A DNA stretch of 64,000 bases. Source: Escherichia coli (GTDB lineage: Bacteria; Pseudomonadota; Gammaproteobacteria; Enterobacterales; Enterobacteriaceae). This document shows, one piece after another, positions 9,001 through 15,000 of the stretch. Position 1 is the first letter of the stretch. Each line of letters begins with the position of its first letter. The DNA is taken from assembly GCF_003018115.1 (NCBI RefSeq), contig NZ_CP027457.1. The stretch is one strand, 5' to 3'. The position numbers are program-made.

Positions 9001-12000
9001 GTGTGTTTTTCCCTGCATGATAAGTTCTGCCATCCAGTTGAAAGCCTGGATGTACGTAACCTTTATTTGCATCGCAGTCTTACCAGTAAACCCCATAACG
9101 ACCAGCATGTAACCGTCTTTCGTCATGTTAAACATTGGCTGGACATCACCATTTTTATCAATAAAATCAGTAGGCTCAAAATTGAGCCGGGCAAAATCAT
9201 CAGGACATTCAGAAATGGTTTGCCTGATCTTTCTTAATACGTTCTTATGACTCTTACCAAAAAATTCCGCCACTTTAATACTCGTGGTCAGGACAGAGCC
9301 TCCCACTACCATAACCATGTCACGAAAATCAATGCCGTTAACAACGGTAGAATATTTCATAGCGTGTACCTGCTCTTTGAAATGAACCTTTGCCGCACAG
9401 GAAACCAGCCCACCGAGGCTCGCCAGCACTAACTGGTATCCTCAAAGGCTCATTCCAAAGGGGCAGGTTCGGTGGTTATCATGCGCTGCGGTGCGCGGTG
9501 AAATTCAGATATGAAAAAGCCAGCGATTAAGCAGGCTCTGTTAATTCAGGCACTGAGTGCGGATATATTCCTGAAGCGTTCTCAATGCGGCCTGATCGCT
9601 GATGATTCCGTCTCTGATACCGAGAACGTTTCGTCCAGCAACTGGAGAGAGTTCGACGGAGGCATCATTGCCCACGCCGGAGGTGGTGGGGGCTTCACGC
9701 ACGGAGCCTGGACAGGTGGCGTTGATCCGCAGGCGCTTACGACCAGCGGCAACATCAGCACGCAGAGTTTCATTTTCAGCTCTCGCATCGGCTAATTCCC
9801 TCGAGTATTTTGCATCGAGCGCAGCAACATCGCGCTGGCGCACCTGCATATCAGTAATGGTTGCGTTTGCCTGCTCCAGCTCTCTGGCTTTTTTATCGCG
9901 CTGCGCTTTGTAGGTGATGGCGTTATCGCGGTAATGATTCAGCCCCAGACTAAGCGCACCACAGACCACCAGCAGAATAACGGTAAACGCGGAAAGCATT
10001 CGGTTTATGCTCACTCCAGCAGCCCCGACGAAGACAACATCATCCAGCCCATGGAAAGAAAAAGAGCAACCAGCATTAGTGAAAATGAAATGCCGACGAT
10101 TACACAGAGGATCTTCGCCAGCATTATGAGTTTGTCTGACATGTTTAATCCTCCCTTCACGATTTCAACGCAATGACCAGTTTTGCCAGCCCATACAGTA
10201 TCGGAGACACAGCGATACCAACCGCCACCCACTTAATAGCAAAAGCCAGCGCTCTGCTGATGTCATCACTTACTGGCGCTTTCAGTTCAGGGCCGTTTTT
10301 CATAGTCAACCTCAACAGAATTCGTTTATACTTTTCCATGTTCTCCCTTGCCTTATCCAAGGTCAGAAACACAAAACCCCGCTTGCTGCCAACAAACGGG
10401 GTTTTTACTTTTATTCACTTAGGTTTTGCCAGTTCGCAGGATTTCGTGTTATCCGTCCGCGTTGGCCAACGTCATTTTTCAGCAAAATATTCTGCTTATC
10501 TGTCGATTCCCCAGCACGCCAGCGCGCTCTCCTGGTCACGACGGGATATCTGGCCGTAACAGTTGTTTGAGCGGATACGGCAGTCTCTGCCACCGTCCTT
10601 AATCCACCAGCGAATCGCTTCACACGCTCCCCTGCGATCGCCTGCATTAATTCGTTTATAAAACGTCGACGGGAAACACTTACCGGGGCCAATGTTATAC
10701 GGGCAGAATGACGCGATCCCCGCTTTCTGGGGTTCAGTCAGTGGCACCCGGATGTTTTTCTCCACCCATGCCAGCGCCTTATCACGCTCAATGGCGTTAA
10801 CCTGGTCGCATTTTTTCTTCGACAACTTCATGCCCGGGACGACAGGTTTGCCATCCACCCTGGTGGCACCACGACAAATGGTCCAGATACCCGCACCATC
10901 ACGGTATGCCGTGGTGTGGTTACCTTCTTTTTCATCCAGAAACTGGTCGAGAATATCAGGCGCAGGCGCCCCTGCGGCAATCAGCGCCAGAACGGCAGCC
11001 GACAGGCCGTATTTGATTTTGGTGTTCATGGATATTTATCAGGATTTATCGGTTCCGGATCCCTGGATATGTTAAGCCTTCACCCCACCAGTGGTGGGCA
11101 CTGGCGGGTTCTTAATTTCCCCGGATGATCGTGGATTACATTCCACCAGGAGATTACTTATGCTTATCTATCCAGCGGCAGACCTCCGTTTACAGGGACG
11201 CAGAGCACAACCATGGGATAAAACAACCACTCATAAATATCGTCCCGGTCAATATTATGACTTTCGTAAACACCCGGAACTGATCGAGACACACCTTGAG
11301 GATTTTGTTGAATATTCAGACAGACAAGCGATTCAGACCTTTTTTTCTTTTGTTAAGTGGATCAACAGCAATTCATCTGCATTCGAGAGCACGGACTGCA
11401 TGTTTTCAGGAACACCAAAGGTTGATGAATACGCCCCGGTATTTGGTTGCACCCATGCGTCATCTGGCCGCTTCGAATTTTTGTTTCGCGATACGAAAAT
11501 AAACCAAAATGAGCGAGCTGTCGGATGGGTACTTAACAAACTATCGCTCTACCTTCAGAAAGAACGGCCCGATTTTTGTAAAGGAACCTTTGGCATCGTT
11601 CCCCTCATGACGGAATATACCGACTCCGGCGGTAACGAGTTCACCGGTTATCGTATTTGTGTCTATTTCGATGCTTACGGGAATGGAACAGAGGATACCT
11701 GGACTTCTCTCAACATCATGTTTGATGGCCTCATGAAAGCCACCAAAAGAATGAGCAATGAAACAATCACTGGCGAGATGCGTCCCCTTTAAAAAATTAT
11801 CCAGAATCTCACTATTTGCAGAGCGCTCTCTGTTTTTTTGAATACGGAAACACTCTGCGAGATTTCTGCTCATCACTTTCCGGCAATAATCGTCAAACGC
11901 AGCAAACTGCTCATCGCGGCGTTTTTTTTCACCTTCGGAAGGGATCTGCACCGACAGTTTTTTATTCAGTTCAACGACGCTGTTCTCCAGTTTTTCAATG

Positions 12001-15000
12001 CGTGATTCGATATCATCTTTTTCTGACTGTATCGTGTTATATGCATTGTTAATTTGTATGGTATACCGCTCTTCTGAACAGAGGCGCTTTTCCGGCAACG
12101 GTTCGTTCCCTTCACATAACCCGGCAGCAATATCCATGAAAAACTGCTTCGCCTTCTTTTTCGCCTCAGCTTCGTAAAACTCCAGCGGGGCACCTTCAAC
12201 ACGATCAAGATCAATCACCACATTTGGCAACAACAGTGACGTATACCCACCCGTTTCCAGCGCCACAGTAACAGTAATCTTATCCGGGTAATTATTTATC
12301 CCTTTAACAACCAGTTCGTATTGTTTATTCATCGTCTACTCTCCCCGCGCCGCCTTACGCCGGTCTTCTTTAATTTTGAAATACAGGTTCGTCAGATATG
12401 TCAGCAGCCCAAACAGCAGACTCCCCAGCACGCCTATTGCCGCCCACTGAGACGGGGAGACTTTGTCCAGCAGTTGCAGGAACCAGTAGCCCGTTCCCAC
12501 CGCTGACGTGGTGTATGACACACCTGTTGTGATTTTTTCCATCTGGTACATACCCCGTCTCCCGCAATCCGGAAGCTCACAACATGAAAAAGGCCAGCAG
12601 CAGTTTACTGATGGCCCTGCCCCCCCCCCGTTACAGCATCATGACCGATTCGGGTTGCGGTTCAGTCGCATCGGCGACCGGTGATTCAGGCTGAACTTCA
12701 CCGCTCTCTGCGGTGGTATCTCCCGCTTCAGTCGCTGGCTCTGCCTGTACACCAAGCAGCTCATCCAGAATGGCATCCACTTCTGCATCAAGACGCGCTT
12801 CCAGCTTATGGCGCAGTTTCTGTTTCAGTGCGCTCAGGACTTCCTCAGAGCGCACGACGTCCTTCACTGCTTCAGCAGTGACCAGGGATGTAATTTCTGA
12901 CATGGGATTTTCTCGTCGAAAGGTGTGATTAAGAAAGTTGCCGCTAAATGAGCGGCTCTTCGGGTTTGCTTCCGGCTGACTGACTGGCGCTGATTTTCTC
13001 AGCGGCCCTTTTGTCAATCTGTCTGCGCCAGACGTCACGCATGGCCCGGTATCCACCCGAAAGGAGATACAGCACACAGACCACCGTACAGAAGTACAGC
13101 ATTAACTGGTTCAGAAATGTCATAATTTCTTTCCGTTATTGTTGACAATAAGAACTGTTTTCATTTAAAAAAACAGAGTACGAAAGTATCGTTCCTTTAT
13201 TTTTTCTCCATAGGTATTACCACCGCCAGTCCATTCCGGTAACTGGCGGCTTTTTTATCATGCAGCGGCGTCCGCGTTATTCACTTCCACCGCAATGCTG
13301 TCTATCAGTACCGGGTAAGTCGCACTTTTGGTAATGTCTGTCACATGCAGTTTATCCGCCGCAAAGGCACTGACCGGTGACTGCGTCAGCGTGAACGGTG
13401 TACCATCCTGACCATCAATAACCGGCGTCACCTGAAGGCTGTTATTTCCTGCAAAACGGAAAGCCAGCGTATGCCATTCGTTATCAAATGCGCCAAAGCT
13501 TCCCAGTTTCAGGTTGTTTGTCGCCACTTTCGCATTGTGGTACATCACATTCAGGTCTTTTGCATCTGTCTGGATGTAGAACGCTGCCAGCAGATTATTC
13601 CCTGCATCCCCTGTCAGGGTGCCCCCCTGCGGCAGAGAGGAAACCGGCCAGTAAAGTGCAATAACATACTGATTTGCTACCAGTTCACCGGATGCCTTAA
13701 AGCGGCAGCTGATTAAACCGCCATTTTTCAGCAGTTCAGCGCCAGTACCGGCATCATGCTCCAGATACCATGACCCCACTCCTGTCTCCTTGCTCAGCTT
13801 CATCGCGGTACCACCTGTTGCACCTTCATCGGCAACAATTTCCGCTTTACCTCCGCCAGCACTCCAGCCCTGTTCGGTCAGCCTCCCTTCAGACTCACTG
13901 GCACGGTAAGACAGCAGTGTTGTTGTGCTTACCGCTTCATTTTCTGACGGTGATGGCGTCGGTGCGCCAGTTTCAGAAGATGGAGCATCGACTTTTACTG
14001 TGGTTCGTCCTGCATGAATCAGAATCGCCGTTGCCAGACGGTCGGAAATAATCCCGCGTCGTGCCCAGGCGCTGAAATGGCTCGCCCTGTCCTGTGACGT
14101 CCAGGTGACTGAGCTGTCACGCCATTTCGAACCGTAATATCCGATACCCGGAATGTCCGGGTCTTCTTCCGGTTTGTTCGTCGGCACATTCACCCCGTTC
14201 TCATCCGTCATGAACGGTACGAAATGGATATTCTTTTCCGTTTTGTTTTTATAGCTGCCGTACACCGTCTGGTACGTGGATTCGTTCTTCTGCTTCCAGA
14301 AATACGTCGTGTCCCCGCATATCCAGGGAACACCGCCAGCAGAGCCACCAACGCACTGACCTGCCATATCCGTCAGGTCTGCACGGAATTTATCAACCAG
14401 CGCACCAAACTGTGCTGCGTGATTTCCGGGCGTGCCGTCAAAATCAAATTCCCCCTGCATCCACACCACGGTAAACAGCACATTTTTCGGGTTCTTCTTC
14501 AGTGCTGCTTTTGTTCGACCGATAAGGTCCTTATACAGCGGCTTGTCCACACCCCAGCGCGCTGAATTCTCCGAGGCACCGCCAGCGTCACTGTATGTGC
14601 CATCAGCTCCGGTGGTGAACGCTGAACCACCACGACAGCACGGAACCAGCAGAATACCCGCATTCGCCGGTATAAACGGCAGCAGTTTTTTGGCGATATG
14701 CAGCCCCTGCCCCACGGTTCCGTACTGCCCCTTTGACAGGTCCGCTTTCGGATGGTTAAGACGGCTCATGTCCTGCACATCATGCAGACAATGGTCCGCC
14801 GGAATGATGTCGTTATATTTACAGGCGACACCGCCCGGTGTCACCGTACTGCGGCGCGCCAGTTGCTTAATACGCGGGTCCGGACGGTCATATGTCTCCG
14901 GCAGCGGAAGACCTTCACCATACGACATGCCATTTGACTGCCCTGCCAGAACCACAACAAAGTAATACTCCGGGTCGCTGGTGGCACTGATTACTGCACC

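Follow-up and report, generated by a model that had tools for sequence, protein, structure and literature searches.

A probable mosaic in the lysis cassette of an Stx2 prophage: a DUF1327/YdfR-family gene and an opposite-strand moron that encodes an undescribed protein family

The window analyzed here, a stretch of 64,000 nucleotides from Escherichia coli (NCBI RefSeq assembly GCF_003018115.1, contig NZ_CP027457.1), carries a Shiga toxin 2 (Stx2)-converting lambdoid prophage with the late region on the minus strand. Between the holin gene S and the endolysin gene R of its lysis cassette lie two convergent open reading frames (ORFs), denoted ORF263 and ORF210 by their lengths in codons, which a first-pass annotation made from the sequence alone had singled out as its top candidate for an undescribed accessory system. 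The layout that it described was recovered: ORF263 occupies 11541-12332 on the minus strand and starts 3 nt past the holin stop codon, with a GGAG-type Shine-Dalgarno sequence in front of its ATG; the plus-strand ORF210 runs from an ATG at 11160 (11161 had been implied) to a stop codon at 11790-11792 and is preceded by the strong AGGAG ribosome-binding site (RBS) that had been noticed; and the two ORFs overlap by 252 bp (11541-11792), close to the anticipated 250 bp. The gap between S and R does hold extra, compositionally distinct DNA, as had been suspected from its AT-richness, with a G+C fraction of 0.42-0.47 over 11150-12350 vs 0.53-0.57 in R and S. The features of the interval and of its two flanks are the following.

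12336-12551, minus strand: holin gene S, 71 aa, class II, S21-like, with the dual-start motif MYQM; upstream flank of the S-R interval
12045-12332, minus strand: residues 1-96 of ORF263, DUF1327 (YdfR-family) domain, assigned by Pfam PF07041
11836-12044, minus strand: residues ~97-165 of ORF263, coiled-coil middle module (SEKDDIESRIEKLEN...KKRRDEQFAAFDDYCRKVMSRNLAECF), common to the longer DUF1327-family proteins
11541-11835, minus strand: residues ~166-263 of ORF263 and its stop codon, an apparently junction-created tail, homology ending upstream of it
11818-11840, plus strand: terminator-like hairpin and T run, 26 nt past the ORF210 stop codon and inside the ORF263 frame
11160-11792, plus strand: ORF210, predicted cytoplasmic alpha/beta protein of ~24 kDa, assigned from homologs, the AlphaFold2 model and the substitution pattern
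11148-11152, plus strand: AGGAG RBS of ORF210, read from the sequence, 7 nt before the ATG
11106-11835, plus strand: inserted cassette of 730 bp (3' part of the leader, RBS, ORF210 and terminator-like hairpin), delimited by blastn junctions
11037-11107, plus strand: conserved leader upstream of ORF210, defined by boxes, a hairpin and a cross-slot alignment
10496-11029, minus strand: endolysin gene R, 177 aa; downstream flank of the S-R interval

ORF210 is a real protein-coding gene and belongs to a widespread, undescribed family. Full-length homologs with 53-65% identity are encoded in Salmonella and in metagenomes, and an exhaustive HMMER search delineated a family whose cluster representatives number 227 at E <= 1e-3 and 129 at E <= 1e-10, with lengths that almost always fall within 200-215 aa. 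A codon-position test was applied to the differences between close pairs among 38 distinct ORF210-homologous genes. For codon positions 1, 2 and 3, respectively, it gave 0.09, 0.03 and 0.30 in the part of ORF210 that is not overlapped by ORF263, and 0.10, 0.03 and 0.19 in the overlapped part; the 3 > 1 > 2 order seen in both halves indicates, as judged from these substitutions, that purifying selection acts on the ORF210 frame. With a 90-sequence alignment as input, AlphaFold2 yielded a compact alpha/beta model with a predicted local distance difference test (pLDDT) score of 95.3 and a predicted template modeling (pTM) score of 0.91. It is the combination of conserved-length homologs, a pLDDT of 95 and this substitution pattern that establishes ORF210 as a gene. 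Ten positions are near-invariant in the family (R15, P18, E47, D48, N69, E76, D79, R104, R110 and N115), which suggests an enzyme or a ligand-binding protein.

Searches of the family and domain databases returned no described relative of ORF210. Pfam gave no match for ORF210 itself, for 90 family members or for 12 long or fused members; PHROG and NCBIfam gave none for ORF210; and a sequence profile search of the PDB produced one chance match only (E 0.49). A Foldseek search of AFDB50 with the model retrieved solely entries named 'Uncharacterized protein' (from Citrobacter, Pseudomonas, Acidobacteria and others), and in the structure search of BFVD the template modeling (TM) scores were at most 0.36. 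The structural analysis that had been recommended at the outset thus delivered a confident fold for ORF210 with uninformative neighbors.

The initial statement that neither protein resembles any recognizable family holds for ORF210, which falls in no described family, and has to be abandoned for ORF263. Pfam PF07041 matches residues 1-96 of ORF263 (E 5.5e-35, model positions 1-90 of 93), phrog_2091 spans residues 1-168 from end to end (2e-85), phrog_36381 covers residues 105-167, and BLASTP aligns ORF263 with YdfR of E. coli K-12 (39% identity, E 1e-21). At the DNA level, an identity of 92% to BP-4795, Stx2_95 and phage 86 begins at about 12083-12085, and 11836-11931 is 97% identical to Stx2_95; the middle module of the protein can be aligned with the 329-aa protein of Stx2_95 and the 169-aa protein of PhiR12_1. 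The homology to every DUF1327-family relative ends at about residue 165-168 (~11836 in the window), and the native DUF1327 C-terminus of the full-length relatives is not retained. From there the frame continues for ~98 codons, first through the hairpin and then antisense to codons 128-210 of ORF210. This part of the frame is codon-aligned with ORF210, such that only TTA, CTA or TCA codons in ORF210 could close it. Because an open stretch of 83-88 codons is present at the corresponding place in the antisense frame of ORF210 homologs that have no DUF1327 gene nearby (loci L007, L009, L010 and L015), the length of ORF263 is best regarded as a by-product of the junction. On the alignments, the native 3' end of ORF263 has been swapped out by recombination and the ~98 codons are read-through; the tail very probably does not represent a native domain. 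The AlphaFold2 model of ORF263 assigns pLDDT values of 23-36 to residues 155-263; with an alignment of only 6 sequences as input, this counts as weak evidence. The existing annotations differ: PGAP, the RefSeq annotation pipeline, calls a pseudogene 'missing C-terminus' that is limited to residues 1-83, and in DDBJ phage records the ORF is annotated over its whole length of 263 aa. In phages of the Stx2_14040 type, the ORF that follows S (L013 2012-2497 and L020 2936-3421, both on the minus strand) lacks the DUF1327 domain; it encodes 161 aa, with a start located within the coiled-coil module (MNHEEMNQRFSRLENE...), and ends in the antisense-derived tail that is seen here.

The presence of a gene in this position is not exceptional. 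For this phage group, the premise of a normal S-R adjacency turned out to be wrong: in the Qin prophage of K-12 the order is essQ-ydfR-rrrQ, with ydfR exactly between essQ and rrrQ, and a DUF1327/YdfR gene likewise separates S from R in BP-4795, phage 86, Stx2_95 and PhiR12_1. In these four phages, the same N-terminal domain follows S and is joined to varied C-termini, the total lengths being 114 aa in BP-4795, 169 aa in PhiR12_1, 268 aa in phage 86 and 329 aa in Stx2_95. Of 5426 complete E. coli genomes, 1401 contain DNA that matches the interval, mostly the DUF1327 N-terminal domain, at a median of two places per genome, so that the adjacency premise fails. The comparison of S-R junctions hence shows that in E. 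coli lambdoid prophages the S-R slot is usually taken up by a gene of the DUF1327/YdfR family.

ORF263 shares with YdfR of Qin the N-terminal domain, the strand and the location, a few nucleotides past a class II holin gene and upstream of a lysozyme gene. It differs in length (263 codons vs 103 in YdfR) and in the addition of the coiled-coil module, which is also seen in Stx2_95 and PhiR12_1, and of the non-homologous tail that appears to derive from the junction. Residues 1-72 of YdfR are reported to bind the catalytic N-terminal half of RNase E, and YdfR to co-purify with RNA (PMC13232886). This literature is the sole functional lead for the DUF1327 family, and a similar activity of ORF263 could be proposed by analogy only.

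ORF210 arrived in the slot as a separate segment. Mapping by blastn against PhiR12_1, phage 86, BP-4795 and Stx2_95 places the recombination junctions of the cassette at 11105/11106 and 11835/11836 (the right one relative to Stx2_95); relative to PhiR12_1, 11106-11882 takes the place of 303 bp. The direct and inverted repeats that flank the insert are short and at chance level, with no transposon-like signature. The cassette is present, with at least 99% identity, in 131 of the 5426 genomes, six copies being listed as 100% identical, and its carriers are Stx1 and Stx2 phages, including those of O26, O145, O91, O104:H21 and O157 strains; only 8 deposited phage genomes encode ORF210, all of them Stx phages. 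The cassette also occurs behind the different S-proximal ORF, without a DUF1327 domain, of the Stx2_14040 type. In most of the 131 genomes, nothing is annotated by RefSeq/PGAP at the location of ORF210 (for example, at L001 4131-4763), and the DDBJ records of Stx phages show an antisense ORF of 263 or 161 aa in its place; the missing annotation looks like a systematic gap.

More divergent homologs occupy other prophage locations. A scan of IMG/VR identified 63 ORF210 loci, 39 of which are divergent (37-56% identity) and are distributed as follows.

19 of 39 loci: homolog between the genes for the central tail fiber J and the tail assembly protein I
11 of 39 loci: homolog adjoining I, with J not seen on the contig
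6 of 39 loci: homolog on the K side of I
3 of 39 loci: homolog elsewhere

The ORF210 homolog and the tail genes are encoded on opposite strands in all 36 tail-module loci, and no DUF1327 neighbor accompanies it in any of the 39 divergent viral loci or in Salmonella. In a Salmonella P22-like prophage, the homolog lies just upstream of the holin gene and likewise on the opposite strand, and in another Salmonella locus it resides in a Gifsy-like remnant near sodC. No consistent partner gene of ORF210 was detected among these neighborhoods, the distant homologs being found on short contigs or without a recurring partner. Several additional genes and signals were observed in the same loci. The P22-like prophage (L007) encodes the Kiwa proteins KwaA and KwaB at 9618-11257 (plus strand), between Q and the holin gene, ~3 kb upstream. 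On two metagenomic contigs, a gene with a SocA/Panacea (antitoxin-type) domain (L016 519-959 and L017 448-888, minus strand) is divergent from an ORF210 homolog of 38% identity. In two loci of the I-J slot (L047 4873-4890 and L066 4855-4872, minus strand), a G+C-rich hairpin, AGCCACC..GGTGGCT, followed by the TTTTTATGG T run, lies on the late-gene strand directly before the start of J, between the antisense ORF210 unit and J, and could insulate J from non-antiterminated read-through.

The sequence ahead of ORF210 has a distribution of its own. Within the conserved leader, the following elements were delineated.

11037-11045, plus strand: leader box 1, TATCAGGAT
11061-11073, plus strand: leader box 2, CCCTGGATATGTT (CCCTGG-TATGTT)
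11085-11107, plus strand: leader hairpin of 7 pairs, 3 of them with compensatory changes (modest support)

The spacing between box 1 and the TATGTT hexamer is fixed at 22 nt. Local alignment of the leader with the regions upstream of the homologs in the I-J slot (L072, L073, L077, L078, L079 and L083) scores z = 12-15 over shuffled sequences. The two-box pattern occurs once in the window, against an expectation of 0, and recurs ~100 nt upstream of ORF210 homologs in ten of the loci L045-L056. It is found also ahead of unrelated plus-strand cargo in the S-R slot, at L003 2508-2544 and L012 1508-1544. The cargo genes between the DUF1327 gene and R in these two phages are an 86-aa ORF of PhiR12_1 (phrog_2572; L003 2612-2872, plus strand) and orf6 of phage 86 (104 aa, phrog_1853; L012 1629-1943, plus strand); in BP-4795, ~65 nt of the leader are kept with no cargo. 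When the 81 nt of 11030-11110, leader included, were used as a query, 330 of the 5426 genomes proved to contain at least 80% of it, vs 131 with ORF210. The slot between the DUF1327 gene and R behaves as a hot spot of cargo exchange, and the leader is a candidate portable promoter/leader module for plus-strand cargo.

The ORF210 cassette behaves as a mobile moron with at least three prophage hot spots. It is additional DNA inserted where related phages have contiguous genes, and its base composition is deviant. The first-pass view of a single undescribed two-ORF system is contradicted by the independent distribution of the two genes (DUF1327 DNA in 1401 genomes vs ORF210 in 131). Taken together, these observations indicate that the S-R interval is probably a mosaic of two independent elements, namely the DUF1327/YdfR gene and an opposite-strand moron cassette.

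The late region in which this mosaic is embedded has the following order on the minus strand: Q, stx2A/stx2B, a nanS-p-type esterase gene, DUF1378, DUF826, S, the S-R interval, R and Rz/Rz1. The major genes upstream of DUF1378 are located as follows.

17442-18263, minus strand: Q
15997-16956, minus strand: stx2A
15716-15985, minus strand: stx2B
13258-15204, minus strand: nanS-p-type esterase gene

PHROG matches for holin, endolysin and spanin are all present in the lysis cassette. S matches phrog_9876 and phrog_20 'holin' (E 2e-40), and its counterpart in a near-identical RefSeq locus (99.9% DNA identity) is labeled 'class II holin family protein'. R matches phrog_7 'endolysin' (E 2e-62), and the equivalent gene in RefSeq is labeled 'lysozyme'; the Ala/Gly-rich, hydrophobic N-terminus of R, as read from the sequence, is the sole basis for considering it similar to signal-arrest-release (SAR) endolysins. 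Over 10401-12700, E. coli O22:H8 RM10809-3 shares 99.9% identity with the window and has annotations for these genes; an Rfam scan of 10400-12700 gave no match. The A and B subunits of Stx2 are encoded at 15716-16956 (minus strand), and the near-identical RefSeq locus is labeled Stx2c; stx2 and the insert in the lysis cassette share one late transcript, on which the insert follows ~3.4 kb downstream. Ten consecutive C (12620-12629; G10 on the coding strand), located just past the stop codon of DUF826 and 68 nt before the start codon of S, may be a slippage-prone site on this transcript.

ORF263 is positioned for translation after S on the late mRNA, and ORF210 is convergent to that transcript. 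The suggestion that ORF210 is carried on the Q-dependent late transcript is accordingly incorrect, since the gene runs antisense to it, and late transcription would oppose rather than drive its expression. Beyond the anatomy, homology, mobility and coding status of the cassette, we infer the timing of expression and the function of ORF210 as follows. In the lysogen, ORF210 would be transcribed from its own leader; after induction, convergent Q-dependent late transcription would damp it, and the Q-modified RNA polymerase would read through the cassette to express R. ORF210 would benefit the lysogen, with phage exclusion or defense as the leading candidate function. Our tentative proposal, which we hold with considerable reservation, is that ORF210 is the founder of a group of single-gene prophage conversion factors, driven by the leader, silenced by late transcription and recruited into the Stx lysis cassette, for which anti-phage exclusion would be the most likely role. 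Because the family usually adjoins gene J, assembly of the tail tip is a possible target.

A precedent for such a gene is available in phage phi80, where orf63/taiEcA is a defense gene that inhibits tail assembly and belongs to a 'non-contiguous operon' (He et al. 2024, PMC11364771). The taiEcA gene encodes 204 aa on the opposite strand inside the late operon, and is present in lysogens and lowered when Q is expressed (PMC11364771). Like taiEcA, ORF210 is a single gene for a protein of ~200 aa that is embedded, on the opposite strand, in a Q-dependent lambdoid late operon near the lysis genes (plus strand vs the minus strand of Q, stx2AB, S, R and Rz, a layout like that of phi80 orf63), and in both cases the family is represented at several prophage hot spots; TaiEcA had no DefenseFinder or PADLOC match at its discovery, and ORF210 has no PADLOC match. 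The differences are that TaiEcA is Cys/His-rich whereas ORF210 is modeled as an alpha/beta sandwich, and that the slot of taiEcA is upstream of the packaging module whereas those of ORF210 are S-R or I-J. The resemblance is one of genetic logic and not of family membership. Tab of JBD26, an 83-aa protein encoded between the terminase genes, is also unrelated to ORF210.

The cassette can further be compared with the classical lambdoid morons, reportedly described by Juhala et al. in 2000, such as lambda bor and lom and HK97 gp15. It resembles them in lying between genes that are adjacent in related phages, in its deviant G+C content, in moving between slots and in having its own RBS and a downstream hairpin. 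It differs in that a promoter and a terminator of ORF210 are not demonstrable by consensus scans, that its protein is predicted to be cytoplasmic whereas many morons encode membrane proteins or lipoproteins, and that its leader is, unusually, common to other cargo ORFs.

Several observations weigh against parts of this interpretation. No defense model of PADLOC-DB v2 matches ORF210 or 10 other diverse members of the family. As a Tai homolog, for which size and layout made it a candidate, ORF210 was rejected: the BLASTP E value is 3.2, and an hhalign comparison with the ORF210 family profile gave a probability of 0.3% for TaiEcA and 0.84% for a TaiEcA profile of 15 sequences. Neither the PADLOC search nor the Tai comparison, then, provides a functional clue for ORF210. 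Distant family members are found in ordinary chromosomal contexts, so that the family is not specific to phages or defense. Scans revealed no sigma-70 consensus promoter upstream of ORF210 or of three of its homologs. The terminator assigned to ORF210 in the first pass is there as a weak hairpin (11818-11833) with a T run: it has 6 pairs, 3 of them G-C, and is at shuffle expectation (one site vs a shuffle mean of 1.7). With regard to the mosaic itself, all copies of the cassette are at least 99% identical, which leaves the ORF263 tail without an evolutionary signal, and the tail could be translated as part of a chimeric protein.

The main rival of a role in the lysogen is that ORF210 serves the phage in lytic growth or entry, as an anti-defense protein or a modulator of host metabolism. 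The absence of a matching defense-system model and of a consensus promoter for lysogenic expression is compatible with this explanation, as is the character of the family, which is soluble and has near-invariant charged or polar residues (R15, E47, D48, E76, D79, R104, R110 and N115). Nevertheless, we deem it rather unlikely given that the orientation against the late operon is maintained in three different slots, as is typical of lysogen-expressed morons, that convergent late transcription would antagonize ORF210 precisely in lytic growth, and that homologs exist also outside prophages. Far less credible is the combination of ORF263 and ORF210 in one two-component accessory system driven by the Q-dependent late transcript at induction. 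The two ORFs are physically linked through their 252-bp overlap, and the phi80 defense and counter-defense genes also overlap on opposite strands in the late operon (PMC11364771); yet here the overlap was made by a recombination junction, the overlapping part of ORF263 has no homolog and its antisense frame is open by an accident of codon usage, ORF210 is antisense to the late transcript, and the ORF210 and DUF1327 genes are distributed independently. Finally, the possibility that ORF263 is the real gene and ORF210 a chance ORF on the opposite strand, which would agree with the DDBJ records that annotate only the minus-strand ORF of 263 or 161 aa and with RefSeq leaving ORF210 unannotated in most genomes, is practically negligible in the face of 227 clusters of conserved-length homologs, the model quality, the 3 > 1 > 2 pattern and the presence of the gene in loci without any minus-strand ORF.

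The reading of the S-R interval as a probable mosaic corrects the idea of S-R adjacency for these cassettes and ties their resident DUF1327 gene to the recent evidence of RNase E binding by YdfR (PMC13232886). It also brings to light an intact, highly conserved and mostly unannotated gene in clinically relevant Stx phages, which represents a sizeable family with a confidently predicted fold and no counterpart in Pfam, PHROG or the PDB. If ORF210 is indeed a defense or conversion gene, it would represent a new family among such prophage genes, with possible effects on the competition between phages and on the spread of Stx phages in Shiga toxin-producing E. coli (STEC).

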